Below, piece by piece: positions 1,112 to 64,000 of a stretch of DNA of 64,000 nucleotides. Position numbers and translations under genes: made by a program. The first letter of the stretch is position 1. Every line of letters starts with the position of its first letter. Source of the stretch: an uncultured Desulfobacterales bacterium (GTDB lineage Bacteria > Desulfobacterota > Desulfobaccia > Desulfobaccales > 0-14-0-80-60-11); contig CAZFWX010000001.1 in assembly GCA_964522695.1 (NCBI GenBank), forward strand, positions 1,517-65,516, read 5' to 3'. Under the pieces are notes generated by a model. The model did no database searches. It had not been told where the DNA came from and saw nothing but the letters and a program-made list of their open reading frames with translations.

Positions 1112-1137
1112 CCATCCCACAACGAGAGGCAGACGTC

Positions 1138-2013: not shown

Positions 2014-2030
2014 GAGAACGAGGTATTCTC

Positions 2031-2528: not shown

Positions 2529-2543
2529 GGAAACCAATATACT

Positions 2544-12311: not shown

Positions 12312-12607
12312 GTTTCTGTGGATATGACTCGTGAAGGGGATTGGACTCCGGTCAACCTGCGGGGGATTGATCCTGCCTATTTTACCATTAAAACCCCGCC
12401 CGGCAAAGGATATGGGGGGCGGACCGGGCGCGCCCGGCCATATAGCGATTGCCAAATGTTTTTTCCCATGGCGGCGTCCTTCTCATCCCCCCACCCCCTG
12501 TAGAAAGTAGAGAACTACAAGGAATAACTACGAAAGTCTGCCCATGGAAAGGATTTTACGGCAAACGCTATGGGTGGCACAGCTTCTTGTTCCGGGTCCC
12601 AACGGCA

Positions 12608-28515: not shown

Positions 28516-28830
28516 CTATAACTGCAAATCCTCATTTACCCGCACATCCCGCTCAATGCGCTCCGCCAGTTTCGTGTCTCGGGCCATTTCCAGGTCGTAG
28601 TGCATCTGCAAATTCAGCCAGAATTGGGGGGTGCTGTGGAAATATTTGGCCAGGCGCAGGGCTGTGTCCACGGTGATGCTGCGGTGTTTGCGGATGATGT
28701 CGTTGATGCGCTGAACTGGCACCCCTAAATCCCGGGCCAGGCGGTTCTGGCTGATCCTCAGGGGCTTGAGATACTCCTCCAGAAGAATTTCGCCGGGATG
28801 AACGGGAGAAAGCTTTCCTTGAGCCATCAC
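28516..28830 (-). CDS. higA: HigA-family antitoxin (XRE HTH)
   Basis: VHPGEILLEEYLKPLRISQNRLARDLGVPVQRINDIIRKHRSIT. Confidence 0.9.
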   Translation of the reverse strand: MMAQGKLSPVHPGEILLEEYLKPLRISQNRLARDLGVPVQRINDIIRKHRSITVDTALRLAKYFHSTPQFWLNLQMHYDLEMARDTKLAERIERDVRVNEDLQL

Positions 28831-28836
28831 TTCACC

Positions 28837-29118
28837 TCAATGATAATCAACGATTTCCACTTCATGGGCATCTGACCCCTGCCAGATGAAACAGAGGCGA
28901 AACTGGTCATTTATTCTGATGCTGTACTGTCCTTTCCGGGCGCCCCGCAAGGCCTCAAGACGGTTGCCCGGGGGACTCCGTAAATCCTCGAGAGCTTCAG
29001 CGGCATCCAGCATCCACAGCTTCCGCAAAGCCGCCCGGTGGATATCCGGAGGGAACTTCTTCGCCGGACGGCGTTGCCAGAGCAGTTCCGTATCCTTGCT
29101 GCGGAAGGATTTGATCAC
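28837..29118 (-). CDS. higB: HigB-family (RelE/ParE superfamily) toxin
   Basis: MIKSFRSKDTELLW..LDAAEALEDLRSPPGNRLEALRGARKGQYSIRINDQFRLCF. Toxin-first order, 6 nt upstream of higA. Confidence 0.9.
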   Translation of the reverse strand: MIKSFRSKDTELLWQRRPAKKFPPDIHRAALRKLWMLDAAEALEDLRSPPGNRLEALRGARKGQYSIRINDQFRLCFIWQGSDAHEVEIVDYH

Positions 29119-29301
29119 AAGAAAAGTTTATGATGGGAAAGGTATCATGTCAAGCATGAAGGGTCTTTGAGAACCAGGGCCTTCATGCGAAAATCCTGAC
29201 CCGCCAAGGGGGGCGAAGGAGTAAACCGGACGATAAGACGGCATGTCAATCGTTAGATTTTGGGGGAAAGCCATGCTGGCGGCAGCTTTCCCCCTGGTGT
29301 T

Positions 29302-31735: not shown

Positions 31736-31771
31736 TTCATGATTGAATCACTTACAGGAGTCCGTTTTTCC

Positions 31772-33085
31772 ATGATTTACGACATAGAAAACGAAACCCG
31801 TCCCCGGGAGGACCTGGAGGCGCTGCAACTGACGCGTCTTAAGGCCGTAGTGGAGCGGGTCTATCACCTGGTGCCCTTCTACCGCCGTCGCCTGGACGAA
31901 GCGGGGGTGAAGCCCGAGGACATCCGCAGTCTGGCGGATCTTTCGCGCCTCCCCTTCACCACCAAGCAGGACCTCAGGGACAACTATCCCTTCGGCATGT
32001 TCGCCGCGCCCATGGAGCAGATCGTGCGGCTGCACGCCTCCTCGGGCACCACCGGCAAGCCCACCCCCGTGGGCTACACGGCCCGGGACATCAACACCTG
32101 GTCCGAGCTCATCGCCCGCACCCTGGCCGCGGGCGGCGTCACCCGGGGCGATATCGTCCACGTGGCCTACGGTTATGGCCTCTTTACCGGCGGCTTAGGC
32201 TTCCACTATGGCGTCGAGCGCCTGGGGGCCACGGTCATCCCCGTTTCCGGCGGCCAGACCCGGCGCCAGATCATGCTCATACAGGACTTCAAACCCAATG
32301 CCATCTGCTGCACCCCGTCCTTTGCCCTGTATCTGGCCGAAGTGGGGCAGGAAATGGGCGTGGACTTCGCCAGGACCAGCCTCAGGGTGGGCTTCCACGG
32401 CGCCGAGCCCTGGAGCGAGGCCATGCGCCACGAAATCGAGCAGCGCCTGCACCTCGACGCGCTGGACATCTACGGCCTGTCTGAAATCATCGGCCCGGGC
32501 GTGGGCATCGAGTGCATTGAAGCCAAAAAAGGCTTGCACATCTTCGAGGACCACTTCCTGCCGGAGATCATCAACCCGGCCACCCTGGAGCAGTTGCCCT
32601 CGGGCGAAACGGGGGAACTGGTCATCACTACCCTCACCAAGGAAGCTTTCCCGCTGTTGCGCTACCGCACCCGGGATATCACCTCGCTCAATCTCACGCC
32701 CTGCGCCTGCGGCCGCACCATCGGCCGCATCACCCGCCTCCAGGGCCGGAGCGACGACATGCTCATCATCCGGGGCGTGAACGTCTTTCCCTCACAGATC
32801 GAGTCCGTGCTGGTGGAGACCCCCGGCGTGGCCCCGCACTACCAACTCATCGTGGAGCGGGAGGGGCACCTGGACACTCTGGAGGTGCAGGTGGAAGTGG
32901 ATGAGGCCACGTTCAGTGACGAGGTCAAGCAGTTGCAGACCCTGGCCAAACGCATCGAGCGGCAGATTAAGGATTACTTCACCGTGTCCGTCAAGGTGCG
33001 CCTGGTGGAGCCCCGCACCATCCCCAGAAGCGAAGGCAAGGCCCAGCGCGTCATCGACCGGCGCAAGACCACCGAGGGAGCTTAG
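31772..33085 (+). CDS. paaK: Phenylacetate-CoA ligase family (PaaK-like aryl/acyl-CoA ligase)
   Basis: [43 protein letters not shown] and [12 protein letters not shown]-binding motif. Confidence 0.85.
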
Positions 33086-33087
33086 AC

Positions 33088-33519
33088 ATGAAAGTGGAGC
33101 AGATCTCCGTTTTCCTGGAAAACAAGGCCGGGCGGCTGGCCGAAGTAACCCGTACGCTGGGCGACGCGGGCGTCAGCATCCGGGCTTTATCTTTGGCCGA
33201 CACCACCGATTTCGGCATCCTGCGCCTCATCGTCGATCAATACGAGAAGGCCCGGGAAGTCCTGAAGGCCAAAGGTTTCACCGTGGGCATGACGGAAGTG
33301 GTGGCCATCGAGGTGCCCGACCGTCCCGGCGGCCTGGCCTCGGTCTTGCAGGTACTGTCCCAGGCTGGCATCAACGTGGAGTATATGTACGCCTTTGTGC
33401 AGCACAGCGGCAAGAACGCGGTCATCATTTTCCGCTTCGACAATCTGGAGGAAGCCATCAAAATCCTCCAGAAAGAAGGCATCCATATCTACAAGGGTGA
33501 GGAGGTCTACCGGCTTTAG
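33088..33519 (+). CDS. ACT-domain protein (PaaK-associated)
   Basis: Tandem ACT-like segments ([34 protein letters not shown]..). 2 nt after paaK. Confidence 0.8.
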
Positions 33520-33609
33520 CCGGGGACTGAGCTTCCTTGCGGGCCGGGCCAGGCGGCGCGCCGTCCGCACGCGTTGATTTCATTGCCGCACCCCAAATCG
33601 GAGGAATCC

Positions 33610-34770
33610 ATGAAAATCCGGTCAGGCATCGCCTTAGCAGCCGTGTTGATGGTTGCGGGAGTTTTCTCCCTGTCTTTGAGCCCCGCCCTGGCGGCGGAAC
33701 CTTTCGTCATCGGCGGCATCTTCTCCGCCACCGGCCCCCATTCCTATCTGGGCGACCCGGAAAAGAAAACCATGGAGATGCTGGCTGCGGCCATCAATGC
33801 CAAGGGGGGCATCATGGGCACGCCGGTGAAGGTGATCATTGAAGACGACGAAGGAGACTCCACCAAGGCCCGCCTCCACGCCGAAAAGCTGGTGCACAAA
33901 GACAAGGTCCTGGCCGTCATCGGCCCCAGCCTCACCCCCACTAGCTTGAGCGCCCTGGAGGTCACCCAGAAGGCCAAGGTGCCCATGATCTCCTGTGCGG
34001 CCGCGGCGGAAATCACCGCGCCTGCGGACCAGCGCCAGTATGTCTTTAAGACCGCCCAGACAGACCAGATGGCCGTGGCCCGGATTTTGGCCTATCTCAA
34101 GAAAAAAGGCCTGACCAAGGCGGCCATCATCACCGTCACCAGCAGCTTCGGCGAGGCCGGCAAGAAACAGCTTCTGGCTCAGGCGGGACCGGCCGGCATC
34201 GAGATCGTGGCCCAGGAATCCTTCGGCGACAAGGACACGGACATGACCCCGCAGCTCACCAACATCAAGGGGAAAAATCCCCAAGTGGTGATCTGCTGGG
34301 GCACAGGGCCAGCCCCGGCCCTGGTGGCCAAGAATATGAAGCAGCTGGGTATGACCATGCCCCTGGTGCAGAGCCACGGCGCAGCCTCCCAGAAGTTCAT
34401 CGAACTGGCCGGTGACGCCGCAAACGGCATCCTCATGCCCGCAGGCAAACTGGTGATCTACAAGCTCCTGCCCGACAGCGACCCCCAGAAGGCGGTGTGC
34501 GCGAAGTACGATGAGGAGTTCCAGGCCAAGTACAACAAGCCCGCCTCCAGCTTCGGCGGCTACGCCTACGACGCCATGGGCATGCTCATCGTCGCCCTGC
34601 AGGATGCCGGCGCCAACCGTGACAAGATCCGGGACGCTTTGGAGAAGACCAAGGGCCACATTGGCGTAAGCGGCGTCTTCAACATGAGCCCCCAGGATCA
34701 CAACGGCCTGACCCCCGACGCCTTCGTCATCGTCAAGATCGACAAGGGCGCCTTCGTCCTGGCTGATTAG
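33610..34770 (+). CDS. Periplasmic branched-chain/aromatic amino-acid ABC substrate-binding protein (LivK/Peripla_BP_6)
   Basis: Signal peptide. IGGIFSATGPHSYLGD..AVIGP motifs. RBS GGAGG. Confidence 0.85.
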   Translation: MKIRSGIALAAVLMVAGVFSLSLSPALAAEPFVIGGIFSATGPHSYLGDPEKKTMEMLAAAINAKGGIMGTPVKVIIEDDEGDSTKARLHAEKLVHKDKVLAVIGPSLTPTSLSALEVTQKAKVPMISCAAAAEITAPADQRQYVFKTAQTDQMAVARILAYLKKKGLTKAAIITVTSSFGEAGKKQLLAQAGPAGIEIVAQESFGDKDTDMTPQLTNIKGKNPQVVICWGTGPAPALVAKNMKQLGMTMPLVQSHGAASQKFIELAGDAANGILMPAGKLVIYKLLPDSDPQKAVCAKYDEEFQAKYNKPASSFGGYAYDAMGMLIVALQDAGANRDKIRDALEKTKGHIGVSGVFNMSPQDHNGLTPDAFVIVKIDKGAFVLAD

Positions 34771-34846
34771 AGCCCTTGCACTGAGTTTGTGGGAGGAGGG
34801 CCGGGGCCGGGGGAGCCACAGCTCCCCTACCATCCTCGCACCCCCT

Positions 34847-35010
34847 CCAACCCCCTTTATTTGCCTGGTTAAGGCGGCCCAGGCTTCCAGTCTGCGTAGT
34901 CGCACAGGCAGGATGCCTGCTCCACTTAAAGCTTAAAGGGGTTGGGGGAGGGAGTTTGAGGGAAGGTGCAGGGGGCTTCGCCCCCTGGCCCTCTCCCTCA
35001 ATTTATCTTT
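34847..35010. repeat. Family-A nested palindromic element, second copy, also carrying a family-C motif (GGCTTCCAGTCTGCG..ACAGGCAGGATGCCTG)
   Basis: Shares the 13-mer CCAACCCCCTTTA, TTAAAGGGGTTGGGGGAGGG and GGGGGCTTCGCCCCCTGGCCC with 8973-9095. Confidence 0.6.
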
Positions 35011-35040
35011 CCTAAATTTTTCGCATCTCCCCCGGGAATT

Positions 35041-35910
35041 GTGGCTAACTTCGGCTCTTTACTCCAATTTCTGATTTCCGGCCTGACCAACGGCGCCATC
35101 TACGCCCTCATCGCTTTAGGGTTCGGCATCATTTACAACGCCACCACCATCATCAATTTCGCCCAGGGCGAGATGGTCATGCTGGGGGCCCTGTGCGCCA
35201 TCAGCCTCTATCATGTCTATCCCTCGCTGCCACTGGCCTTTACAGGCGGCGTGGCCCTGGTGACCGTGGTGGGCTTGCTCCTGGAGCGCCTGGCCCTCCG
35301 GCCCGCCCGGGACGTTACGCCCATTACCCTCATCATCATCACCGTGGGCGGGGCGGTGTTCATCAAAGGCCTGGCCATGATCTTCTGGGGCAAGGAGGCC
35401 TACACCCTGCCGCCGTTTACGGGCAGCACGCCCCTTCACCTGGGTCCGGCCACCCTGATGCCCCAGAATCTCTGGGTCCTGGGGGTGGGGGCCCTGGTGG
35501 TGATCCTGCTGGAAGCTTTCTTCCGCCTGACGCTGGCGGGCAAGGCCATGCGGGCCTGCGCCTACAACCAGCGAGCCGCCCGGCTGGTGGGCATTCCGGC
35601 TCACCGCATGGTGCAGCTCTCCTTCGGCCTGAGCGCCGGGCTGGGGGCAGCGGGAGGCATCCTCATCGCCCCCCTCACCCTGGGCGTCTATGACATGGGC
35701 ACCATGCTGGGTCTCAAGGGTTTTTGCGCCGCCATCCTGGGCGGCCTGGGCAGCAGCCTGGGGGGAGTTTTGGGCGGCCTCATCCTCGGGGTGGCCGAAG
35801 CCTTGTCCTCGGGACTCATCTCGTCGGGCTACAAAGACGCAGTAGCCTTTTTCATCCTGCTGGTGGTGCTTTTCTGGCGCCCCCAAGGCCTGGTGGGGGG
35901 CAAGGAGTGA
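35041..35910 (+). CDS. livH: Branched-chain amino-acid ABC permease LivH
   Basis: LLQFLISGLTNGAIYALIALGF start motif. GTG start chosen at 35041, because the upstream part of the ORF is a translated repeat element. Confidence 0.85.
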   Translation: MANFGSLLQFLISGLTNGAIYALIALGFGIIYNATTIINFAQGEMVMLGALCAISLYHVYPSLPLAFTGGVALVTVVGLLLERLALRPARDVTPITLIIITVGGAVFIKGLAMIFWGKEAYTLPPFTGSTPLHLGPATLMPQNLWVLGVGALVVILLEAFFRLTLAGKAMRACAYNQRAARLVGIPAHRMVQLSFGLSAGLGAAGGILIAPLTLGVYDMGTMLGLKGFCAAILGGLGSSLGGVLGGLILGVAEALSSGLISSGYKDAVAFFILLVVLFWRPQGLVGGKE

Positions 35911-36875
35911 AGCGCCTGGCCTTCCTTAACCCCGGCATCCTTTTTTTGCCGGTAATGCTGCTCACGTCTCTGGCGGTGCCCAACAACTACTACTTCACCC
36001 TCCTGAACATCATCGGCATCCACACCATTTTGACCCTGGGGCTGAACCTGCTCATGGGCTACGCCGGCCAGATTTCCCTGGGCCACGCCGCCTTTTTCGG
36101 TCTGGGGGCCTACACCTCCGGCATCCTCACCACGGCAGGCCTGGTGAACCCCTGGCTGGCCCTGGTCCTGGGGCTGGCGGTGTCGGGGATTGCGGCTTTT
36201 CTCATCGGCGTCCCGGTGCTCAAACTCCGGGGCTATTACCTGGCCATGGCCACCCTGGGCTTCGGGGTCATCGTTTACATCGTCTTCACCCAGGCCCAGC
36301 GTTTCACCGGCGGACCCTCAGGCCTCACCGGCATCCCTTCCTTAAGCCTCCTGGGCTTTGCCCTGGACACCCCCGGACGGCTCTACTTTCTCATCTGGGC
36401 CGCGGTGGGGCTGCTGCTGCTGCTCAGCGCCAACCTGGTGGACTCCCGGGTGGGGCGGGCGTTGCGGGCCCTGCACGACAGCGAGGTCGCGGCCCAGTCC
36501 CTGGCCGTGGACACCGCCCGCCTGAAGCTGCAAATCTTTATTCTGAGCGCCCTGTACGCTTCTTTGGCCGGCAGTCTCTACGCCCACGCCCTGAATTTTA
36601 TCGCCCCGTCCTCCTTTGACATCATGTTTTCCATCAAGCTGGTCACCATGGTAGTGGTGGGCGGCATGGCCAGCATCTGGGGCTCGCTCCTGGGCGCGGC
36701 GACGCTCACAGTCCTGCCGGAATTCCTGGCCTTCTTTCACGAATTCGAGATTGTCATTTACGGCGCCATTCTCATGGTGGTGATGATCTTTCTGCCCCGG
36801 GGTCTGCTGCGGGGCTTCTTAGAATTGTGGGATCGCCGCCGCCGGTCGCCCCAGGGAGGGCCACTCCCTGACTGA
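35907..36875 (+). CDS. livM: Branched-chain amino-acid ABC permease LivM
   Basis: GTG start overlapping the livH stop. GYAGQISLGHAAFFGLGAY motif. Confidence 0.85.
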   Translation: MKRLAFLNPGILFLPVMLLTSLAVPNNYYFTLLNIIGIHTILTLGLNLLMGYAGQISLGHAAFFGLGAYTSGILTTAGLVNPWLALVLGLAVSGIAAFLIGVPVLKLRGYYLAMATLGFGVIVYIVFTQAQRFTGGPSGLTGIPSLSLLGFALDTPGRLYFLIWAAVGLLLLLSANLVDSRVGRALRALHDSEVAAQSLAVDTARLKLQIFILSALYASLAGSLYAHALNFIAPSSFDIMFSIKLVTMVVVGGMASIWGSLLGAATLTVLPEFLAFFHEFEIVIYGAILMVVMIFLPRGLLRGFLELWDRRRRSPQGGPLPD

Positions 36876-36891
36876 AACCGCGCTCCTCCGG

Positions 36892-37644
36892 TTGGATGAC
36901 GTGTCCATCTCTTTCGGCGGCCTGGCCGCGCTGAACCAGGTGAGCTTTGCCGTGGAGTCCGGCACCGTCAAGGCCGTCATCGGGCCCAACGGCGCGGGCA
37001 AGACCACCCTGTTTCACCTTATCACCGGCTTCCTCACCCCCGAGGCCGGACGCATCGTATTCCAGGACGAAGAAATCCAGGGCCAGCCGGCCCACGCCAT
37101 CGCCGCCCGGGGCATTGCCCGCACCTTTCAGCTGGTCCAGCTCTTTGATCATCTCACCGTCCTGGAAAACATCATGGTGGGCCGCCATAGGCTCACCCGC
37201 TCGGGCCTGGTGGCGGGCGCCCTGCGATTGCCCCGCTCCCGCCGGGAGGAGGCGGCCATCCGCCGGGACGCCTGGGAATCTTTGGAATTCGTGGGCCTCA
37301 CCGGCCGGGCGCAGCAGTTGGCCGGGTCTTTGCCTTTGGGGCTCAAGCGCCTCCTGGAAATTGCCCGGGCCCTGGCCGCGGCGCCGAAGCTTTTGCTCCT
37401 GGATGAGCCCGCCTCGGGCCTGGACCCGGTGGAGACGGAGCGTCTGGGCGAGCGCATCATGGACCTGCGCCGCCGGGGGCTCACCGTGCTGTTGGTGGAG
37501 CACGACATGAGCCTCACCATGGAAGTGGCCGACGACATCGCGGTGCTCAGCTACGGCCGCCTCCTGGCCCAGGGCCCGCCCCGGGCCATCCAGCGGCATC
37601 CGGAGGTCATCGCCGCGTACCTGGGCACGGACTGGCAGGGCTGA
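36892..37644 (+). CDS. livG: ABC ATP-binding protein LivG
   Basis: Walker A GPNGAGKTT, signature LPLGLKRLLEIARAL, Walker B LLLLDEP. The true start may lie a few codons upstream. Confidence 0.85.
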   Translation: MDDVSISFGGLAALNQVSFAVESGTVKAVIGPNGAGKTTLFHLITGFLTPEAGRIVFQDEEIQGQPAHAIAARGIARTFQLVQLFDHLTVLENIMVGRHRLTRSGLVAGALRLPRSRREEAAIRRDAWESLEFVGLTGRAQQLAGSLPLGLKRLLEIARALAAAPKLLLLDEPASGLDPVETERLGERIMDLRRRGLTVLLVEHDMSLTMEVADDIAVLSYGRLLAQGPPRAIQRHPEVIAAYLGTDWQG

Positions 37645-37840
37645 ATTGTTTTGCAGGGCCGGAAAGCCCAGCGCACCCTGCCTTTCGGGGTGCTCTCTGG
37701 AAGTGCCTAAACTTAAGGTGCTGCATGCTTTCCAGTCTGCGAAGCCCAAATAGCAGGCGGAAAGCCGGCGATTACGAAAATTTCCTTGTTTTCAGATCAA
37801 AATATCAGCTCAGACGCCACTTCTGAGGGGAAAAGACGCC

Positions 37841-38254
37841 ATGGTCAGCAGCAAGTTTTCGAGACAAGTCGCCATCTTTGTTGTTTTATTTTCATTATTT
37901 GGCATGCTGCACCTTCCCCAGGCCCAGGCCGGCTGCGCGGTGACGGTGAAAAATGAGACCGGCTACGATCTCGTGTTGCTCAAGTACGTGAAAGAGGATG
38001 GCGTCGGCAAGAAGGTGATGGGGCAGACCGCCTTGAAAAAGGGTGGTGCTCATACCTTCAACCTGGGCACTGCGGGCACCTACCGGGCCTACGCCTCCCT
38101 CATGATGGACGGCCAGCTCAAATATGCCAAGGGCAACGCCTACACGGTGAAGGACGGCACCCGGGCCGAACTGAAGTTGCTCAGGGTGGTGGCCAATGAG
38201 AAAGGCAGCTCCATCAGCTTTATCAATCAGGACGAGTTTGACCGCCTCAAATGA
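37841..38254 (+). CDS. Small secreted hypothetical protein inserted between livG and livF
   Basis: Signal peptide ..LHLPQAQA|GC. No family recognised. Flanked by repeat-bearing spacers. Confidence 0.6.
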   Translation: MVSSKFSRQVAIFVVLFSLFGMLHLPQAQAGCAVTVKNETGYDLVLLKYVKEDGVGKKVMGQTALKKGGAHTFNLGTAGTYRAYASLMMDGQLKYAKGNAYTVKDGTRAELKLLRVVANEKGSSISFINQDEFDRLK

Positions 38255-38389
38255 CGGCGTTCCCCCGGCAGGAATGGAAAAGGTTGCCCTTCGGGGTCGC
38301 CCCCTTTGATTAAAATAATTCTATTCCGGCGAAGCCGCGTGGTATGATGGCCTCCCAGGGTTCGCCGGACGGCCGGGCGCATTAACTTT

Positions 38390-39124
38390 ATGCTCAGAAT
38401 CCGCAATCTTTTCGCCTACTACGGATCGGTCACGGCCTTGAGCGGCGTCACCTGCCGGGTCCGGGAGGGCGAGATCGTGGCCCTGATCGGCGCCAACGGC
38501 GCGGGCAAGACCACGCTCCTGAACGCCGTCTGCGGCATGGTGCGCTGGCAGGGCGAGGCCGCCTTCCGGGGGCGCTCCCTGGTCGGACTGGCCCCGGAGG
38601 AGATCGTGGGGCTGGGCATTTCCCAGGTGGCCGAGGGCCGGCAGCTCTTCGCGCCCATGACCGTGGCCGAAAACCTTGAGTTGGGAGCCTACCGCCGCCG
38701 CCGGGAAGCCAAGACCGCGCTGGTCGAAGATCAGGAGCGGGCCTTCACCTTGTTTCCGGTGCTGAAGGAACGCCTGGCCCAAAAAGCCGGCACCCTGAGC
38801 GGGGGCGAACAGCAGATGCTGGCCATCGCCCGGGCCCTCATGGCCCGTCCAAAACTCTTGTTGCTGGATGAGCCTTCTTTAGGTCTTGCACCACTGGTCG
38901 TGGAAACCATTTTGGCCACCCTGGGGGATCTTAGGGCTGCGGGGATGACCATTTTGCTGGTGGAGCAAAACGCCCGGGCCGCGCTCAAGGTGGCGGACCG
39001 GGCCTATGTCCTGGAAACCGGGCGCATTATGCTGTCCGGGGCGGCCGCGGATCTGTTGGCGGACCGCCAGGTGACCCGGGCCTATCTGGGACGGGACTAC
39101 AAAGAATTCACCGAAGGGAGGTGA
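38390..39124 (+). CDS. livF: ABC ATP-binding protein LivF
   Basis: Walker A GANGAGKTT, signature LSGGEQQMLAIARAL, Walker B LLLLDEP. Confidence 0.9.
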   Translation: MLRIRNLFAYYGSVTALSGVTCRVREGEIVALIGANGAGKTTLLNAVCGMVRWQGEAAFRGRSLVGLAPEEIVGLGISQVAEGRQLFAPMTVAENLELGAYRRRREAKTALVEDQERAFTLFPVLKERLAQKAGTLSGGEQQMLAIARALMARPKLLLLDEPSLGLAPLVVETILATLGDLRAAGMTILLVEQNARAALKVADRAYVLETGRIMLSGAAADLLADRQVTRAYLGRDYKEFTEGR

Positions 39125-40377
39125 GGTTCGTGCGGCAGCCGGAATTCGAGGCCATGGAACCGGAGGAGTTGGAACTGCTGCAACTGGAGCGCCTGCAAAG
39201 CAGCCTCACCCGGGCCTACCGCCAGGTGAAATTTTACCGCCGCCAGTTCGAGCAGACGGGTTTGCGACCTCAGGATATCCAGTCCCTGGGCGACCTGGCC
39301 CGCCTGCCTTTCACCAGCCGGGAGGACCTCTCGGAGAACTACCCCTACGGCCTGTTCGCCGTGCCCCTTAGGGACATCGTGCGCATCCTCTCCTCGCCCG
39401 GCACCACCGATAAGCCCCTGGTGGTGGGTTACACCTCCCAGGACGTCAAACTCTGGCTGGAACTGCTGGCCCGCCTGTACACCGCCGCGGGGGTCACCCG
39501 GGAGGACATTGTCCAGCTCATCCTGCCGCCGGGGCTCGCCAACTGGCGACGGGACTTCCAGGCCGGGGCCGAATACCTGGGGGCTTCGGTCATTCCGGCG
39601 GCTACTTTAAATTTTGCCAAGGAACTCATGGTCTTGAGGGATTACAAGACCTCGGTCCTGGTCACCACCCCGCCCTTAGCCCGGCACCTGCTCACGGTGA
39701 TGGAGCAGATGGAGCTCATGCCCGCGGACTTAAGCCTCAAGAAGGTCCTGCTGGTGGCCGCGCCTTTAACGCCCATGGTGCGCCGGGAAATTGAAGAAGG
39801 CCTCCAGGTGCGGGCCGCCAGCGCCTACGGCATCACCGAAGTCATGGGGCCGGGCCTGGCCTACGGCTGCGAGGTTGATGAGGGCCTGCATTTCTCGGCC
39901 GACCATTTCTTCCCGGAAATTGTCGATCCGGTGACGGGCGCACCTTTGCCTGCGGGAGCCGAAGGCGAGCTGGTGATCACCACCCTGTCCACTCTGGCCG
40001 TGCCCCTGGTACGCTTTAAAAGCGGCGACCGGGCCCGGCTGGAGACGGAGCCCTGTCTCTGCGGCCGCACCCTGGTGCGCCTGGCCGAAGTGCGGGGGCG
40101 GGTGGACGCCATCTTCTCCGTAGGCGGCATCAAGGTCCATCCCCGGCAGATCAGCGCCCTGTTGGCCGAGGCCCTGGGGGGGGAGGCCCCCGAGTTCCAC
40201 TACCAGGTGGTCACCGAGGCGGGTCTGGAGGTCCTGGACCTGGAACTCACCGTGGCTGAGTCTTTCTTCTCGGATGAAATCAAAGCCCTGGAAGGCCTGT
40301 GCCGCAAGGTCAGGCGGCATTTCCAGGACCACCTGGGCTTAAACGCCCGCATTACGTTAAGGGAAATGACCCCCTAG
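39121..40377 (+). CDS. Divergent PaaK-like CoA ligase paralog (degenerate AMP-binding loop)
   Basis: N-terminus is collinear with paaK (FYRRQFEQTGLRPQDIQSLGDLARLPFTSREDLSENYPYGLFA), but the loop reads SSPGTTDKP instead of SSGTTGKP. Confidence 0.8.
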   Translation: MRFVRQPEFEAMEPEELELLQLERLQSSLTRAYRQVKFYRRQFEQTGLRPQDIQSLGDLARLPFTSREDLSENYPYGLFAVPLRDIVRILSSPGTTDKPLVVGYTSQDVKLWLELLARLYTAAGVTREDIVQLILPPGLANWRRDFQAGAEYLGASVIPAATLNFAKELMVLRDYKTSVLVTTPPLARHLLTVMEQMELMPADLSLKKVLLVAAPLTPMVRREIEEGLQVRAASAYGITEVMGPGLAYGCEVDEGLHFSADHFFPEIVDPVTGAPLPAGAEGELVITTLSTLAVPLVRFKSGDRARLETEPCLCGRTLVRLAEVRGRVDAIFSVGGIKVHPRQISALLAEALGGEAPEFHYQVVTEAGLEVLDLELTVAESFFSDEIKALEGLCRKVRRHFQDHLGLNARITLREMTP

Positions 40378-40556
40378 AGGTAATGCTGGTCAACAGCGAA
40401 TCCTCTCTGGGGGCGAGGTCCCTTCGCCCAGCTTGCAGGGGAAGGACAAAGCGGGGGGCCCTACGGCAACCAGGCATTATCAAGGCCGAAAGGAAATGCC
40501 TGGTGTTTAATGGGACTGTTTAGCAAAACCGAATAATATTTTCTGAGACCACTATT

Positions 40557-40579
40557 CCCCCTCCCCTCGGGGGAGGGGG
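40557..40579. repeat. 10-bp perfect GC hairpin (CCCCCTCCCC-tcg-GGGGAGGGGG)
   Basis: Read directly from the sequence. Related to family B. Confidence 0.5.
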
Positions 40580-40634
40580 TCAGGGGGATGAGGCTTTTTC
40601 CCGGCACCCAATAATCCTGCCGCAGAATTTGCCG

Positions 40635-40670
40635 CCCCCACCCCAGCCCTCCCCATCCAGGGGGAGGGAG
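40635..40670 (+). repeat. Family-B GC hairpin repeat copy (CCCCCACCCCAGCCCTCCCC-atccag-GGGGAGGGAG)
   Basis: Near-identical to 21020-21057. Confidence 0.6.
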
Positions 40671-40778
40671 AATCTGACCGATTAGCCCAGGGAAATGGAA
40701 AAGCCTTGCACGAAAAGACATGCTGATGGCAGTTTCCTGATCTCATTGGGCCGGCCACTTTTATTAAAGGAGGTACGT

Positions 40779-41921
40779 ATGAAACGTACTCATTGGTTCA
40801 TGGTTTTGGCATTGGTCCTGGGCGCCTGCCTCGTCGCCGGCCTGGGCTGCGGGGAAAAGAAAAGCACCAAGGTCGGCTCGGTGCTGCGCCTGTCCATCGG
40901 CGCCGAACACGGCATCCCCTCCAAACGGGGCGTGCTCATGGCCGTGGAGGAAGTGAACCAGGCCGGCGGCATCAACGGCATGAAGGTGGAGGCCGTGGTG
41001 GAGGACGAGAAGGACTCCCCCACCACCGGCGTCAACGCGGTGCAGAAGCTCATCAACGTGGACAAGGTCATCGCCATGGTGGGGCCCATGACGTCGGGCG
41101 CGGCCTCGGCGGCGGCCAAAACTGCGGAAGAAGCCAAAGTGGTGATGGTGACCCCCACCGCCACCACTCCCAAATTGAGCGGCATCGGCCAGTATGTCTA
41201 CCGGGGCTGCTCCCGCATCGACACCCAGTCCCAGGTGATGACCCAGTACATCGCCGAGAAGCTCAAGCCCAAAACCGTGGCCATTCTGTTCAGCAATGAG
41301 CCCTATGGCAAGGGCTGCGCCGAGGCCTTCGGCAAGGACTTCGCCAAGGTGGGCATCCAGGTGGTGGCCACCGAGTCCTTCAACCGGGGCTCCCGGGACT
41401 TTAAAAGCGAGCTGACTAAGATCAAGGAAAAGAATCCGGATATTCTCTTCATCCCCGGCTACACCCCGGAAACCGCGCCCGCCGCGGCCCAGGCCCGGCA
41501 GTTGGGCATGAACCAGAAGATCATCGGCGTCTACGGCGACATGGACCCGGTCTACGCCCAGCTGGCCGGCGCGGCCGCAGAAGGCCACCTCATCAACGGG
41601 GAGTACGACGAAGATTACGACACCCCCAAGAACAAGAAATTCCGGGAAGCCTACTATGCCAAGGCCAAAGAGGCCAAAGAGCCGGTGAACATCATGTTCG
41701 CGGCCCTGTGCTATGATTCGGCTTCCCTGATTCTGGAGGGCATCAAGAAAAACGGCCCCACCAGCGAGGGCGTCAAGAAGTTTCTGGACACGGTGAAGGA
41801 CTTCGACGGCGTGACTGGCAAGCTCTCCTTTGACGACAAGCACGACGTGGTGCGCAGCGGCAGCAAAGGCGGCGTCTACCTCTTCGAAATCAAAAACGGC
41901 AAGTACGTCAAGGTGCAATAG
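40779..41921 (+). CDS. Second LivK-type periplasmic substrate-binding lipoprotein
   Basis: Lipobox LVAGLG|C. RBS AAGGAGG. Peripla_BP_6-like motifs (AMVGPMTSG). Confidence 0.85.
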   Translation: MKRTHWFMVLALVLGACLVAGLGCGEKKSTKVGSVLRLSIGAEHGIPSKRGVLMAVEEVNQAGGINGMKVEAVVEDEKDSPTTGVNAVQKLINVDKVIAMVGPMTSGAASAAAKTAEEAKVVMVTPTATTPKLSGIGQYVYRGCSRIDTQSQVMTQYIAEKLKPKTVAILFSNEPYGKGCAEAFGKDFAKVGIQVVATESFNRGSRDFKSELTKIKEKNPDILFIPGYTPETAPAAAQARQLGMNQKIIGVYGDMDPVYAQLAGAAAEGHLINGEYDEDYDTPKNKKFREAYYAKAKEAKEPVNIMFAALCYDSASLILEGIKKNGPTSEGVKKFLDTVKDFDGVTGKLSFDDKHDVVRSGSKGGVYLFEIKNGKYVKVQ

Positions 41922-46697: not shown

Positions 46698-47825
46698 TCA
46701 CTTCTTCTCAAAAAGGGGCAGGTACTTGCCGTAACCATCCTTTTCCAGGTCTTCTTTGGGAATGAAACGCAGGGCGGCGGAGTTCATGCAGTACCTTAAG
46801 CCTGTGGGCTTAGGGCCGTCTGGGAAGACGTGGCCGAGATGCGAGCCGCCGTGTTTGCTGCGCACCTCGATGCGTTTGGAAAAGAGCTTCCAGTCGTCCT
46901 TCTCCACGATGTTGCCGGGCTCAAGCGGCTTGGTGAAGCTGGGCCAGCCAGTGCCGGAGTCATACTTGTCCAGCGATGAGAACAGCGGCTCGCCCGAGAC
47001 GATGTCCACGTAGATCCCTTCCCGTTTGTTGTCCCAGTATTCGTTCTGAAAAGGCGGTTCTGTGCCCTCTTCCTGGGTCACCTTGTATTGCAGGGGGGTC
47101 AGCTTTTTGCGCAATTCGGCCTCGCTGGGTTTCTTAAAGCCGGGGTTGCCGGGGGCCTGGGCGGCAGGCTTGCCTGCCTTGCCCCAGGTCCCTTCCAGGA
47201 ACTGATCCCGGCCAGAGTTATGGCGGTAGTACTTGTACCGCAGAGGGTTTTTCCTGTAGTAGTCCTGGTGATAATCTTCGGCCCGGTAAAATGTGCTGAA
47301 GGGCAGGATCTCGGTGACAATGGGCCTGGTAAAGCGCCCGGATTTCTCCAACTCTTTTTTGGATTCCTCGGCCAGCCGCTTTTGCCCGGCGTCATGGTGG
47401 AAAATGACGCTGCGGTATTGACGCCCCCGGTCCACGAATTGCCCGCCGGCATCCGTGGGGTCCACATGCCGCCAGAAGTAGTCCAGCAATTCCTGGTAGG
47501 AGACTTTGCGGGGATCGTAGCGCACCTGGATGACCTCCACATACCCCTTCCGGGCGTAATCCTCATAGGTGGGATTGGCCCCGTCGCCCCCCGCATAGCC
47601 GGACACGGCCTCCACCACGCCGGGCAGTTTTTCAAAGTCGGATTCGGTGCACCAGAAACAGCCGCCGGCAAACGTGGCGACTTCGAGTTGTGACTGTCCT
47701 TCCGGCATGCCGCCTCCCTGCCCAGGTTGCTGCTTCGCTGCGGCCGCAGCGTTGGAGGCCCGTGTCAGAGCTAACCCGCCCATAACGGCCAGCGCCAAAA
47801 AAGAAATCAGCAAAAAATTTTTCAT
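46698..47825 (-). CDS. msrAB: Exported bifunctional peptide-methionine sulfoxide reductase MsrA-MsrB
   Basis: Signal peptide. MsrA motif GGCFWC. MsrB motifs GTGWPSF and RYCMNS. Confidence 0.9.
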
Positions 47826-53276: not shown

Positions 53277-53984
53277 TCACTGGTTAATGCTGGCCTGCTG
53301 TGAATTCTGGGGAACATCTTTTAGCGGGGGCTGGCAATACCGGCACTGAACGTATCCTCTAGTCTGGGCCTCCTGCACGGAAGTGAATTCCAACACATTT
53401 CCGGGCGCAATCTGCTTCACCCATTGGCAATGGGGATAATGGTATTTATTGGACGTTTTGGAGCCCACATATTTGACCAGGACTGGCAGGCCATGGGGCG
53501 GGTTGGCCGCCGCGGCCGTCTGCACAAACCCGCTCTGGCCATTGGCGGTATTGCTCCGGGAACCGGCCAGGACCACCGCCATGCCCTTGGCCATCTGCTT
53601 GGGGTCGCTCAAGGTCAGCAGGGTTCCGGCCCGGCCATCGGTCAATCTGTCGCCGTTGCTGCCGGCAAACAAACCATTGCGCTCACCGGTCCGGACGGAG
53701 GCGTCCAGGGGTTTCGCCAATTGAGCGGAGACGGCTTTACCGGCAGGCGGCAACGGCGCCTGGGTCTCCTGAACAAAGAGTCCGGGCCGGCAAAGCGGCT
53801 TGCTGATCATGTACCCCAAACCGGCGACGTTCAGCACCGCTAGAATGACCAGCAGAAATCTCAATTTGGTGATGCGGGTTTTCAGAATGGAGATTTGTGT
53901 CCCCTGCACCCTTTGAAAAAATGCCACCTTATCCTTAGCAGGCTTGCGCTGAAAGAATTTTTCACCCACCGCAGCGTTCCCCAT
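53277..53984 (-). CDS. Membrane-anchored protein with C-terminal Ada-Zn/'sunset'-type Cys/His motif
   Basis: One TM segment (LRFLLVILAVLNVAGLGYMI). C-terminal KYHYPHCQWVKQI..N..F....EA...GY..CRYCQP. Confidence 0.6.
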   Translation of the reverse strand: MGNAAVGEKFFQRKPAKDKVAFFQRVQGTQISILKTRITKLRFLLVILAVLNVAGLGYMISKPLCRPGLFVQETQAPLPPAGKAVSAQLAKPLDASVRTGERNGLFAGSNGDRLTDGRAGTLLTLSDPKQMAKGMAVVLAGSRSNTANGQSGFVQTAAAANPPHGLPVLVKYVGSKTSNKYHYPHCQWVKQIAPGNVLEFTSVQEAQTRGYVQCRYCQPPLKDVPQNSQQASINQ

Positions 53985-57369: not shown

Positions 57370-57804
57370 ATGGCGAAAGTCGGCGCAAACAGGATGGGGC
57401 GTGCAACGAAAGGTGGTGAGGCCATGGCGACATGCAGCACGGTTCTGATTGCCGAACCCGGGGATCATCTGACCGGCGGCCTGCGGCTGTGGGTGCGCGA
57501 CAACGGGCATCAGCTTCTCACCGTGGACAAATTCACGGATCTCCTCATCACCTTGCAGCGGGAAAAGGTCAGCGTTCTGGTCATGGACGTGCGCCTCTCC
57601 GAGGGACATGGGTATGAAGCCATCTCCATCATCAAGGGGTTGTGTCAGAAACTGCCCATCATCATCTGCGCCGCGGAAAACAACCCGGAACAGGAGGCCC
57701 TCATCCGCCAGAAAGGCATCTTCTATTACCACGTCACGTCGTTCGGCCTGGAAGAACTGATGATGGCCATTTCCAACGCCCTGGGGCGGGCCGCGCACGT
57801 CTGA
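57370..57804 (+). CDS. Stand-alone CheY-like receiver-domain protein
   Basis: VLIAEPGD..VLVMDVRLSEGHGYEAISIIK..PIIICAAE receiver pattern. Confidence 0.7.
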   Translation: MAKVGANRMGRATKGGEAMATCSTVLIAEPGDHLTGGLRLWVRDNGHQLLTVDKFTDLLITLQREKVSVLVMDVRLSEGHGYEAISIIKGLCQKLPIIICAAENNPEQEALIRQKGIFYYHVTSFGLEELMMAISNALGRAAHV

Positions 57805-57815: not shown

Positions 57816-58685
57816 ATGCAACTGGAACCCAAACTGGCAAAAGGGGAATTTGTCATTCTGGCGGAGATGGAGCCTCCCAAAGGGGCAGACGTCTCCGAAA
57901 TGGTGGGCCATGCCCTGGCCGTCAAAGGCCGGGTGGACGGCTTTGTGGTGCCGGAGATGAGCAGCGCGGTGATGCGCTTGAGCTCCCTGGGCGGGGCCAT
58001 GCTCCTGGCCAACCGGGGCTTGACCTCAGTGATGCAGGTCTGCTGCCGGGACCGCAACCGCCTGGCCCTGCAGGCGGACCTCCTGGCCGCCAACGCCCTG
58101 GGCATAGAGAACGTCATGGCCGTGACCGGCGATGACATCACCTTTGGCGACCACCACAAGGCCCGGCCGGTGAATGACCTGGACCTGATGGAGCTGCTGG
58201 GGGCCCTCAAGACCCTCATGTCCGGCCGGGATCTGGCCGGCATCGAGCTCAAGGGCGCGCCCCGGTTCTTCGTGGGGGCCCTGGCCAACACCGGAGCCAA
58301 GGCCCTGGACCTGGAGCTGGCCGACCTGGACCAGAAGGTGGCCGCAGGGGTGCGCTTCTTTCTGACGCCCCCGGTCTTTGACCTGGCCGTCCTGGAACGC
58401 TTCCAGAAGCGCCTGGCCGGCGCCGGCGCCTATCTCATCCCCACCGTGCTCCTGCTCAAAAGCGTGGGCATGGCCCGGTACCTGGACCGCCATATCGAGC
58501 AGGTCAGCGTTCCCGCCGCGGTCATCGACCGGCTCCAGAAGGCCCCGGAGCGGGTGCGGGAGTGTGTGGCCATCGCCGGGGAACTGGTGGCCGGCGTCCG
58601 GGATATGGGGCTAAGCGGCGTCAACCTGTCCACCATCGGCTGGGAAGACAAACTCCCGGCCGTGCTCGCGGCCGCGGGTCTGTAA
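57816..58685 (+). CDS. metF: Methylenetetrahydrofolate reductase (MetF, acetogen/sulfate-reducer type)
   Basis: FVILAEMEPPKG..CRDRNRLALQADLLAANALGIENVMAVTGDD..FFLTPPVFD motifs. RBS GAAGGGAG. Confidence 0.85.
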   Translation: MQLEPKLAKGEFVILAEMEPPKGADVSEMVGHALAVKGRVDGFVVPEMSSAVMRLSSLGGAMLLANRGLTSVMQVCCRDRNRLALQADLLAANALGIENVMAVTGDDITFGDHHKARPVNDLDLMELLGALKTLMSGRDLAGIELKGAPRFFVGALANTGAKALDLELADLDQKVAAGVRFFLTPPVFDLAVLERFQKRLAGAGAYLIPTVLLLKSVGMARYLDRHIEQVSVPAAVIDRLQKAPERVRECVAIAGELVAGVRDMGLSGVNLSTIGWEDKLPAVLAAAGL

Positions 58686-61700: not shown

Positions 61701-63150
61701 GACGCACGAGGCCCTGTTCCGGGAAACCCTGCTGGACGCGGGGCTGAACAAGTATCTCTTCGAGATGGCCAACATCCGCAACCAGGACTCCTGGGTGCAT
61801 ATGCATGAGAAGGAGGAGGCCACGGAGAAGGCCCAGGACCTGGTGCGCATGGCCGTGGCCCGGGCCACCCTGCTCAAGCCCCTGGTGGAGACGCCTCTGA
61901 CCATCAATCAGCGGGCCCTGGTGCTGGGCGGCGGGGTGGCGGGCATGAACGCCGCTTTGAACCTGGCGGATCAGGGTTTTGAAACCATCCTGGTGGAAAA
62001 GGAGCGGGAACTGGGGGGTCTCGCCCGCCGGGTGCACCATACTCTCGAAGGCATGGACGTGCAGGCCTACCTGGACGGCCTCATCGACCAAGTGAAAAGC
62101 CATGAGAAAATCCAGGTCCTCACCCAGGCCCTGGTGGTGGGCTACAGCGGCTACAAGGGCAACTTCGTGACGGAAGTCCTGGTGGGCCCCGGCATGTATG
62201 AACGCAAAATCGAGCACGGGGCCACGGTCATCGCCACCGGCGCGCAGGAGTACCGGCCCAAGGAATTTGCTTACGGCAGCCATCCCGGCGTCATGACCCA
62301 GCTCGAACTGGGCCAGATGGTGCACGAACAGAAGGATAAAGTGGCGGGCTGGCAGCGGGCCTTCTTCATCCAGTGCGTGGGCTCCAGAAACGAAGAGAAC
62401 CCCAACTGCAGCCGCATCTGCTGCCAGGGCGCGGTGAAGCATGCCCTGGAACTCAAAAAGCTCAACCCGGTCATGGAGGTGGTGGTGCTCTACCGGGATA
62501 TGCGCACCTACGGGCTCCAGGAGGACTACTATCTGGAGGCCCGCAACCAGGGGGTGCTCTTCTCCCGCTTCGATCTGGAGCGGCTCCCCCAGGTGAGCGA
62601 AGCCGGCGGGAAGCTCTCGGTGCAATTCCTGGACCACGTCCTGCAGATGCCGGTGAGCCTGCCCGCGGACGCGGTCATCCTGAGCGCGGCCACGGTGGCC
62701 GGCGATAACGAGGAGCTGGCCTCGCTGCTCAAGGTCCCCCGGGGCTCGGAAGGCTTTTTTATCGAAGCCCACGCGAAACTCAGGCCCGTGGATTTCTCCA
62801 GCGAGGGCATCTTCCTGGCGGGCAGCGCGCACAGCCCCAAGCTGGTCACGGAGAGCATCGCCCAGGCCCTGGCTGCGGCCTCCCGGGCCGGGGCGTTTTT
62901 AGCGGACACCAGCCAGACCATCAGCGGCGTCACTGCCTGCGTCACGCCGGACCGCTGCGCCGCCTGCCTCATCTGTGTGCGGGTCTGCCCCTTCAAGGTG
63001 CCGCAGATCAACCAGGATAATGTTTCGGAGATAAACCGGGCCCTGTGCCAGGGGTGCGGCATCTGCGCCTCGGAGTGCCCGGCCAAGACGATCCAGGTGT
63101 CCCATTACGAGGACGACCAGATTACCGCCAAGATCAAGGCGCTGTTTTAA
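58711..63150 (+). CDS. hdrA: Giant HdrA-like flavoprotein (1479 aa): two HdrA modules with an inserted GltD/NfnB-like NAD(P)H-binding module (HdrL-type)
   Basis: FAD motif VVGAGIAGVQAALDLA. Several CxxCxxCxxxCP clusters. GltD-like block PCTLTCPAEINV..GRVCPHPCEDQC..IAIVGSGPAGLACAYHL..VVGGGNVAIDVA. Two HdrA cores (CVGSRD..YCSSVCCMYAIK and CVGSRNEE..CSRICCQGAVK). Confidence 0.9.
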   Translation: MAESQMQSNPSTPPTGAVMVVGAGIAGVQAALDLAKSGIFVHLVESKPAIGGVMAQLDKTFPTNDCSMCILSPKLVECGRHLNIQIHTLTEVQDISGEPGHFTVSLTKHPRYIDPAKCTGCGDCTKVCPVLIPDEFNQGLADWKATYRLYPQAIPAAFAIKKLDRAPCTLTCPAEINVQGYVQLIKMGKYEEAVRLIMERLPLPGVLGRVCPHPCEDQCRRKDLDEPVSICSLKRFAADQVDLAAINPPPVEARPERIAIVGSGPAGLACAYHLALRGYRPTIFEALDKPGGMLRVGIPDYRLPKDILDKEIDNILRLGVELKTNTALGRDFTLDGLFDQGYQSVFLGLGCHLGKPLGIPGEDADGVVQGVDFLRRQSLGQPQPVGKRLAVVGGGNVAIDVACTARRLGSDVTIVYRRSREEMPAFHHEVEQALCEGVKIVYLAAPLKVVAGPDGKVTGLLCQQMELGEPDASGRRKPVPIPGQEFELAVDMVVPAIGQEAALTAFQDWGVNVSKWGTIEVDEVSYQTSRPGVFAAGDVHTGPWIAIEAVGGGIEAAESIDRYLKGLDLTAGRVLGKEAHQRWADIPKDEYGQLREEMPTLPPETSCACFDEIALGFSEAQAQKEAARCLNCGICSECMQCVIACQANAVDHTQQPETLNVEVGSVILAPGFKTFDPARMATYGYLTHPNVVTALEFERILSASGPFEGHLVRPSDHKEPKKIAWLQCVGSRDVKTHSYCSSVCCMYAIKEAVIAKEHADYPLDCAIFFMDLRTFGKDFEKYANRAQDEAGVRFIRSRIHSIDPAPDGGLALQYLDETGAIKTEDFDLVVLSVGMEITEDVKRLGAKLGVELNSHAFASTHPFAPVATSRPGVYVCGAMAGPKDIPESVTQASAAAAASSALLGQSRWTLTRTRQIPEPKDITGEPARVGVFVCDCGINIASVVDIPRLSEYARGLPHVVFVQENLFTCSQDTQVQMLKAIEDHNINRVVVAACTPLTHEALFRETLLDAGLNKYLFEMANIRNQDSWVHMHEKEEATEKAQDLVRMAVARATLLKPLVETPLTINQRALVLGGGVAGMNAALNLADQGFETILVEKERELGGLARRVHHTLEGMDVQAYLDGLIDQVKSHEKIQVLTQALVVGYSGYKGNFVTEVLVGPGMYERKIEHGATVIATGAQEYRPKEFAYGSHPGVMTQLELGQMVHEQKDKVAGWQRAFFIQCVGSRNEENPNCSRICCQGAVKHALELKKLNPVMEVVVLYRDMRTYGLQEDYYLEARNQGVLFSRFDLERLPQVSEAGGKLSVQFLDHVLQMPVSLPADAVILSAATVAGDNEELASLLKVPRGSEGFFIEAHAKLRPVDFSSEGIFLAGSAHSPKLVTESIAQALAAASRAGAFLADTSQTISGVTACVTPDRCAACLICVRVCPFKVPQINQDNVSEINRALCQGCGICASECPAKTIQVSHYEDDQITAKIKALF

Positions 63151-63160
63151 GGAGTGGCCC

Positions 63161-63613
63161 ATGGACGCGTTCCGACCGAAAATCCTGGCCTTTTGCTGCA
63201 TGTACTGAGCGTACTCGGCCGCGGACCTGGCAGGTTCGATGAGGCTGCAGTACCCCCCGGACATCCGCATCATTCAGGTGCCGTGCACCGGCAAGGTGGA
63301 CATCATCCACCTGCTCACGGCCTTTGAAGAGGGGGCGGACGGGGTTTTCGTGGCCGGTTGCCAGGAGGGCGATTGCCACTTCCTGGAAGGCAACCTGCAT
63401 GCCAAGAAACGGGTCCAACGGGTCAAGGAGATCCTGGAGAAGGTGGGCCTGGGCGCGGGCCGGGTGGAGATGTTTAACCTGTCCGCAGGCATGGGCCCCC
63501 GCTTTGCAGAAATCGCCCGGGAGATGGACGCGCGTATCAGGGAGATGGGCCCCAGTCCCATCCGGAAGGCCAAGCCCTCCCTCCCCCAGGCCGCCACGGA
63601 GGTGCGGGTATGA
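63161..63613 (+). CDS. mvhD: MvhD-like (methyl-viologen-reducing hydrogenase delta subunit family) protein with in-frame UGA at 63206-63208; probable selenoprotein
   Basis: ATG at 63161, with RBS AAGGAG 7 nt upstream. MDAFRPKILAFCCMY-UGA-AYSAADLAGSMRLQYPPDIRIIQVPCTGKVD is in frame with the track ORF 63239-63613. The UGA sits where the family has the second Cys of the F-x-C-x-W-C-S-Y-x-G-A-D motif. Confidence 0.7.
63222..63238 (+). other. Candidate SECIS-like hairpin 14 nt after the mvhD UGA (CGGACC-uggca-GGUUCG)
   Basis: 6-bp stem (one G-U pair) folded by hand. Confidence 0.3.
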
Positions 63614-64000
63614 TCAGGGCAGTGGGAAAACCGTTGGAAGAAGTGGTGGAAATGGTCCGGGAGCACCCCCGGGTGCTGGTGGCGGGCTGCGACGGCTGCG
63701 TCACCGTGTGCGAGGCGGGCGGCTTGAAGGAGGTCAAGGTGCTGGCCAGCGCCTTGCGCCTGTATTTCAACCAGGCCGAAGCTCCCAAGCAGATCGACGA
63801 AACCAGTCTCACCCGCCAGTGCGACAAAGAATACCTGGCCACCATCAGCGACAAGATTGACGGCTATGACGCCGTATTGTCCCTGGCCTGCGGCTGCGGC
63901 GTCCAGTTCATGGCGGATATGTACACCACCAAGCCCGTCTTTCCGGGGGTAGACACCACCTTTCTGGGCGTCACCGAGGAGCGGGGTCTGTACACCGAGC
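63610..64000 (+). CDS. metV: MetV (methylene-THF reductase C-terminal/zinc-finger domain protein), 3'-truncated by the window edge
   Basis: ATGA overlap with mvhD. VLVAGCDGCVTVCEAGG..LSLACGCGV Cys pattern. Confidence 0.75.
   Translation, partial: MIRAVGKPLEEVVEMVREHPRVLVAGCDGCVTVCEAGGLKEVKVLASALRLYFNQAEAPKQIDETSLTRQCDKEYLATISDKIDGYDAVLSLACGCGVQFMADMYTTKPVFPGVDTTFLGVTEERGLYTE

Follow-up and report, generated by a model that had tools for sequence, protein, structure and literature searches.

The mvhD gene at the downstream end of the 64-kb stretch of DNA analysed here (hereafter the window) starts 78 bases upstream of its called start, and an in-frame UGA at 63206 is almost certainly read as selenocysteine (Sec). 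With a probability of about 90%, mvhD encodes a 150-residue selenoprotein whose UGA is decoded as Sec by means of a SECIS element within the coding sequence (CDS), the product being the MvhD adaptor of an HdrL-MetVF module. Sec-containing MvhD, the CxxU motif, and SECIS elements within a CDS are established biology; the window mvhD is an ordinary, already known type of member of a selenoprotein family, and the result is a correct re-annotation. The MvhD/VhuD family (PF02662, CxxU) is included in a table of experimentally verified prokaryotic selenoproteins (PMC13188914), in agreement with an earlier interpretation made from the DNA letters (the sequence-only reading), which had described MvhD/VhuD homologs as known selenoproteins. 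The elements of the gene are as follows.

63149..63154 (+): Shine-Dalgarno sequence AAGGAG, read directly; it overlaps the TAA of the hdrA-like gene and is separated from the ATG at 63161-63163 by a 6-nt spacer
63161..63613 (+): full-length mvhD CDS, 150 codons including the proposed Sec16, based on translation, family profiles, and PDB matches
63206..63208 (+): in-frame UGA, the proposed selenocysteine codon, at residue 16 in the motif C13-M-Y-U16
63221..63238 (+): putative bacterial SECIS core, with the invariant 17-mer GCGGACCTGGCAGGTTC at 63221-63237 and an RNAalifold consensus hairpin
63239..63241 (+): internal Met27, the wrong start in gene calls, where the called ORF is 63239-63613

The stop codon of the upstream hdrA-like gene is the TAA at 63148-63150. 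From the ATG at 63161, the mvhD frame reads MDAFRPKILAFCCMY-TGA(63206-63208)-AYSAADLAGSMRLQYPP and continues into the called ORF (Met 63239) up to the TGA at 63611-63613, which overlaps the ATG of metV (63610) as ATGA. A GGAG or GGGG before the mvhD start is retained in relatives. Direct reading and translation confirm the proposal of the sequence-only reading that the ATG at 63161, preceded by AAGGAG, opens the called frame. Its proposal that gene callers truncate the gene also holds, since in public gene calls this protein and the three most closely related to it (P0001-P0004; 89-100% identical) are each given as 124 aa. These four closest database proteins are the only ones of such length among the homologues, indicating that gene callers shortened all of them likewise.

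When Cys is placed at codon 16, the resulting 150-aa protein matches Pfam PF02662 (FlpD/MvhD) over positions 1-123 of 123 with 171 bits (cut-off, 22.3 bits), while the called 124-aa ORF matches positions 21-123 only, with 136.8 bits; the N-terminal 26 residues contribute 34 bits to the match and extend it to model position 1. Additionally, the 150-aa product covers positions 2-131 of 132 of the NCBIfam VhuD model and matches PDB MvhD chains with E=2.5e-42. The sequence-only reading would have been refuted had the region 63161-63238 not been conserved as protein; the opposite was found, in that homologues recovered from a search of 5.8 billion proteins share the N-terminus FxPKIxAFCCxY[C/U]AYxAADLAGSMRL.

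Alignment with Cys- and Sec-containing MvhD/VhuD proteins places the UGA exactly on the Cys/Sec position, that is, on the second Cys of the MvhD motif to which the sequence-only reading had assigned it. Codon 16 is aligned to Cys in all 18 Cys-type homologues of the alignment and to Cys16 of Methanothermobacter marburgensis MvhD (PDB 9SW2 chain D). The alignment to the latter is gap-free with identical numbering and, therefore, the UGA corresponds to Cys16. The same codon aligns with X (Sec) of Methanococcus maripaludis VhuD (PDB 9SFI chain K); a check of both PDB entries bore out their identities. In a species survey that included one genome per GTDB species (80 loci), the codon aligned to residue 16 is TGA in 41 loci and TGT or TGC in 38, with a single remaining locus reaching a contig end and being assigned no codon. 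A locus with TGA and TGT copies in tandem (L014) was counted in the TGA group, to which the cultured species Desulfocarbo indianensis (L076) and Desulfovirgula thermocuniculi (L062) also belong. Further, a rough NJ tree shows Sec and Cys forms intermixed, with the state changing at least 6 times.

Residues C42, C67, and C72 are invariant in the alignment and C13 is present in all full-length rows; Cys13, Cys42, Cys67, and Cys72 are thus the presumptive [2Fe-2S] ligands of the protein, and Sec16 would serve as a redox relay and not in binding the cluster. In structures of the methanogen Mvh-Hdr complex, the additional Cys16 has the [2Fe-2S] cluster of MvhD on one side and the CxxC pair and FAD of HdrA on the other (PMC13580544). 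The sequence-only reading had suggested that truncation would remove part of the Cys-ligand set. This stands for Cys13, a probable ligand, but not for Sec16, which is lost as well and is probably a redox residue.

The small hairpin that the sequence-only reading had pointed out at 63222-63238, downstream of the UGA, is also present and is invariant only in TGA-containing orthologues. It has the form CGGACCU-GGC-AGGUUCG, with 7 bp and a folding energy of -8.2 kcal/mol (23-nt fold); a 55-nt fold downstream of the codon yields -20.8 kcal/mol. In the stem, 63223-63228 pairs with 63232-63237, with an extra C63222-G63238 pair in the window, and the apical loop is GGC (63229-63231). The hairpin begins 13 nt after the UGA, leaving 20 nt (63209-63228) between the UGA and the apical loop, and it lies within the codons for A-D-L-A-G-S. 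The consensus model of the bacterial SECIS specifies a loop of 3-9 nt, an upper stem of 4-16 bp, and a G[G/U] loop start (PMC13188914 Fig. 2A), along with a UGA-to-loop distance of 16-37 nt and an MFE <= -7.5 kcal/mol (PMC13188914). The window hairpin agrees with all four parts of the model, having a 3-nt loop on a stem of 6-7 bp (6 bp in all forms), a GG loop start at 63229-63230, 20-nt spacing, and -8.2 kcal/mol. It resembles the consensus bSECIS (bSECISearch model; E. coli fdhF type) in being a stem-loop within the CDS after the UGA with a small GG loop (PMC13188914), but differs from it in that its sequence is specific to the gene family and that conservation extends to no more than a mini-hairpin of 6 bp with a loop of 3 nt. 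Archaeal SECIS elements, by contrast, are situated in non-coding sequence and differ in structure (PMC13188914).

The evidence that this element is constrained at the RNA level comes from synonymous sites. The 17-mer GCGGACCUGGCAGGUUC (63221-63237) is identical in 45 of 45 distinct TGA forms and in 0 of 36 distinct Cys forms. The ADLAGS peptide itself is also encoded in 27 of the 36 Cys forms, but these depart from the 17-mer at 2-7 positions. All six base pairs are retained in 45/45 Sec forms versus 0/36 Cys forms. Likewise, the entropy at the third position of the five codons GCG GAC CUG GCA GGU is 0 in Sec forms versus 0.98-1.94 bits in Cys forms, and the joint frequency of these five Sec-form codons among Cys forms is 0.004. 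Synonymous variation in the flanking codons is equal and near-saturated in the Sec and Cys sets. Since invariance is limited to the codons of the hairpin and the flanks are equally variable, it is the RNA that is constrained, within the hairpin only and in connection with the UGA. Moreover, the interleaving of Sec and Cys forms, with at least six switches between them, indicates that invariance of the 17-mer does not reflect one shallow clade.

There are no compensatory base-pair changes to count, as all six pairs are invariant. When compared to shuffled sequences, folding energy is unexceptional (z = -1.4 for the 23-mer and -0.35 for 71 nt), and mean folding energies downstream of the codon in Sec versus Cys forms are -13.9 versus -15.3 kcal/mol (p = 0.058), a difference in the wrong direction. 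Given that the energies are non-significant, the evidence for the element is synonymous-site invariance and not energy. A scan of the whole window at Rfam gathering thresholds returned no match; thus, the SECIS is covered by no curated model. A longer lower stem predicted in the window (63211-63253) is unconserved in more distant Sec forms and was, therefore, left out of the element. A copy of the hairpin with 2 mismatches at 53560-53574(-) is within chance expectation.

Collectively, a mechanism can be proposed in which translation would begin at the ATG at 63161 and the UGA at 63206 would be decoded as selenocysteine by SelB and Sec-tRNA(Sec), these being recruited by the minimal bacterial SECIS hairpin at 63222-63238 with its GGC loop. 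The presence of a selenoprotein predicts a need for selenium and selABCD in the organism. No homologs of selA, selB, or selD (NCBIfam, 20 largest ORFs) and no tRNA-Sec or any other tRNA (ARAGORN) were detected in the 64-kb window, but this is only part of a genome and the missing sel genes there are therefore uninformative.

An alternative explanation is that the UGA is a true stop, in which case the locus would encode a 15-residue leader followed by a 124-aa MvhD that starts at Met27 (63239), or would be a decaying pseudogene. This is the choice made by gene callers; an AGG is located a few nt before the ATG at 63239, and the lack of Sec machinery within the 64-kb window is in keeping with it. 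However, a 124-aa form would be devoid of Pfam positions 1-20, among them those of Cys13 and residue 16, both conserved throughout the homologues. The 15 codons upstream of the UGA also behave as protein-coding sequence: the ATG and TGA are kept upstream of the called products of four relatives (89-100% identical; independent JGI, ENA, and Logan assemblies), and the differences among these relatives in the 15 codons are in-frame codon changes, some of which are synonymous. Further, Met27 is an internal residue in 17 of the 18 full-length Cys-type homologues that cover the position, being replaced by Leu in P0028. Finally, the recurrence of TGA at this one codon in 41 species, followed by a hairpin that never varies, would be expected neither of a true stop nor of a pseudogene. 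Termination at this codon is, therefore, considered highly improbable.

It is also very unlikely that the UGA is read as a standard amino acid (Cys, Trp, or Gly), either through near-cognate suppression or through genome-wide reassignment. Cys is functionally acceptable at residue 16 in half of the homologues, and the identity of the inserted residue is predicted from sequence, both of which leave some room for such a reading. However, UGA is an ordinary stop throughout the window, including at the end of mvhD itself (63611-63613), which argues against genome-wide reassignment. In addition, the TGA-linked invariant hairpin fits the bSECIS model, and the homologous position is Sec in the solved VhuD structure. 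Lastly, the possibility that the TGA is a sequencing or assembly error for TGC or TGT, from which a single base change would yield Cys, is effectively refuted by its presence in three JGI contigs with the same called protein and identical upstream translation, in four species-level relatives (JGI, ENA, and Logan), and in 41 GTDB species representatives.

The 64-kb window yielded no second selenoprotein candidate. When the whole window was scanned, on the basis of GC3, for in-frame TGAs in coding-like sequence, the only sites returned were that in mvhD and one artefact, at 58028(-), which is antisense to an MTHFR gene. A TGA-joined ORF at 28516-29127(-) was resolved into two separate genes, one for a HigB/RelE-like toxin and, directly after it and in frame with it, one for a HigA-like HTH antitoxin. 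Some members of the MsrA/MsrB family are selenoproteins elsewhere; the fused MsrA/MsrB methionine sulfoxide reductase encoded at 46698-47825(-) is an uninterrupted Cys form and not a selenoprotein.

The proposed decoding of the UGA as Sec is next considered in the context of the genes among which mvhD is found. The cluster within the window consists of mvhD and the following genes.

57424..57804 (+): gene for a response-regulator receiver, the first in the cluster (Pfam PF00072), in the same position in a relative (L004)
57816..58685 (+): MTHFR-family paralogue, 289 aa, upstream of hdrL (Pfam PF02219, 94 bits), in the same position in L004
58711..63150 (+): HdrL-type fused subunit, 1479 aa (NCBIfam HdrA2, 947 bits; PRK12771, 584 bits; Pfam)
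63610..64000 (+): 5' part of metV, cut by the end of the window and complete in L001

On L001, a contig with an identical mvhD, metV (L001:1418-2086; PF12225, 131 bits) is followed by metF (L001:2083-3018; PF02219, 130 bits). The order hdrA-mvhD-metV-metF is found in 67 of 80 related loci, comprising 42 of 44 Sec loci and 25 of 36 Cys loci, the latter including Moorella/Neomoorella. The cluster is flanked upstream by the response regulator and the MTHFR paralogue, and 3' of metF by a response regulator, an ACT-domain protein, and histidine kinases. Two MTHFR-family genes thus flank the hdrL-mvhD-metV core, one (57816-58685, 289 aa) without an adjacent MetV and the other (L001:2083-3018) a canonical metF (311 aa), and a stand-alone response-regulator gene is located near each of the two.

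The HdrL-type protein is a tandem HdrA into which, at ~aa 165-632, a GltD/NfnB-like NAD(P)H module of ~460 aa is inserted, and it has a CxxC pair, C66/C69. The residues of this pair (DCSMC) align to Cys202/Cys205 of M. marburgensis HdrA and to Cys194/Sec197 of M. maripaludis HdrA (PMC13518236). Neither hdrB nor hdrC is adjacent to the mvhD cluster in the window or among its neighbours in L001, indicating a HdrL-type variant and not the hexameric type of Moorella. When compared to the 1022-aa tandem HdrA of the relative with a 90% identical MvhD (L004:6844-9912), the 1479-aa HdrL is equivalent to that protein plus the ~460-aa insertion. The NAD(P)H module was therefore gained or lost between close relatives that have the same metF cluster.

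In such a module, the mvhD product would be a [2Fe-2S] adaptor subunit docking on the HdrA-type flavoprotein whose gene immediately precedes mvhD, and MvhD and this HdrA-type protein would, together with MetV and MetF, make up a methylene-tetrahydrofolate reductase module of the Wood-Ljungdahl pathway. [quoted passage not shown] A comparable function has been put forward for BamF of the class II benzoyl-CoA reductase of Geobacter metallireducens, an MvhD-homologous [2Fe-2S] adaptor with Sec19 beside the cluster (bioRxiv 10.64898/2026.04.10.717634), for which a selenenylsulfide intermediate is proposed en route to the bifurcating FAD (bioRxiv 10.64898/2026.04.10.717634). The role proposed for Sec16 is that of Sec19, the two being compared by description. 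BamF differs from the window MvhD in the complex of which it is part, in its additional domains, and in its length, which is greater by >100 aa.

Several known systems are close to that of the window. M. maripaludis VhuD matches the window protein in PF02662 (E=5e-39) and in having Sec (X) at window residue 16 in CxxU, and its role as an adaptor that docks its [2Fe-2S] cluster on HdrA is that proposed for the window MvhD (PMC13518236). VhuD differs in being archaeal and in having a second Sec where the window has Cys67. Its partner is [NiFeSe] hydrogenase or formate dehydrogenase with HdrABC, whereas that of the window MvhD would be MetVF. The MetVF complex of Moorella (PMC5736913) shares the hdrA-mvhD-metV-metF order with the window, and the Moorella/Neomoorella orthologues (L029, L031, and L050) are 65-66% identical to the window protein. 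In contrast to the window gene, these Moorella forms have TGT (Cys) at codon 16 and are without the hairpin, and the window HdrA differs from that of Moorella in being of the tandem, GltD-fused HdrL type with no adjacent hdrB or hdrC in the window or L001.

Parallels are also found in other Desulfobacterota. Desulfobacterium autotrophicum HRM2 has four Sec-containing mvhD genes, mvhD1/2/3/5 (PMC2702500), and a Sec-containing mvhD of Desulfococcus multivorans (dmul_C28840/50) was annotated as two split ORFs (PMC5109826). As in the window, these genes have an in-frame UGA and a SECIS, and mvhD directly follows hdrA or hdrL, a fusion of HdrA and glutamate synthase (PMC2702500, PMC5109826). The window HdrL, with its tandem HdrA and GltD/NfnB-like insertion and with mvhD next to it, matches the 'HdrL' fusion of D. 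autotrophicum (PMC2702500). Some hdrL of D. autotrophicum are Sec-containing while the window hdrL is an uninterrupted Cys form, the likeness being drawn from published descriptions (PMC2702500).

In the MetVF-linked MvhD clade, about half of the species have TGA at residue 16 and share one 17-nt SECIS over at least two phyla. The occurrence of one invariant mini-SECIS across phylogenetically mixed MetVF-linked mvhD, the roughly 50:50 division between Sec and Cys, and the tandem pair at L014 are mildly interesting. Based on the single invariant 17-nt SECIS, its occurrence in at least two phyla, the at least 6 Sec/Cys switches, and the tandem copies at L014, it is conceivable, although doubtful, that the Sec allele and its SECIS could move as a cassette by horizontal transfer or recombination. 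At L014 (Desulfobacteraceae MAG JBKHJN010000027.1), hdrA and metV are separated by a tandem pair of mvhD copies (357-797 and 870-1313), of which the first has TGA and the invariant hairpin and the second has TGT; the pair resembles the Vhu/Vhc selenium back-up arrangement of methanococci.

The deposited 124-aa protein is without the N-terminal 26 residues, which include Cys13 and Sec16, and models built on the 124-aa form would therefore be wrong. The TGA orthologues in the 41 species-representative genomes have very probably been miscalled likewise. Taken together with the four closest entries, which are miscalled, this suggests that, for Desulfobacterota, Sec in the methylene-THF reductase module of the Wood-Ljungdahl pathway is systematically under-reported by metagenome-derived catalogues.

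Several other genes in the window were noted. Fap functional-amyloid-like genes (FapC-like, FapD C39 peptidase-like, and FapB-like) are located at 209-3302(+); all score below NCBIfam cut-offs and are at most distantly related to the Fap system. A fused isobutyryl-CoA mutase/GTPase, IcmF, of 1116 aa is encoded at 9105-12455(-) and scores above the NCBIfam cut-off (1700 bits). A multi-PAS sensor histidine kinase of 1801 aa is encoded at 15396-20801(-), with more histidine kinase/response-regulator genes at 13362-14450 and 21234-22487. Lastly, at 31739-41921(+), genes for two PaaK-type phenylacetate-CoA ligases are interspersed with those for a Liv-type ABC transporter of branched-chain amino acids, a set that comprises two substrate-binding proteins, a permease, and an ATPase.
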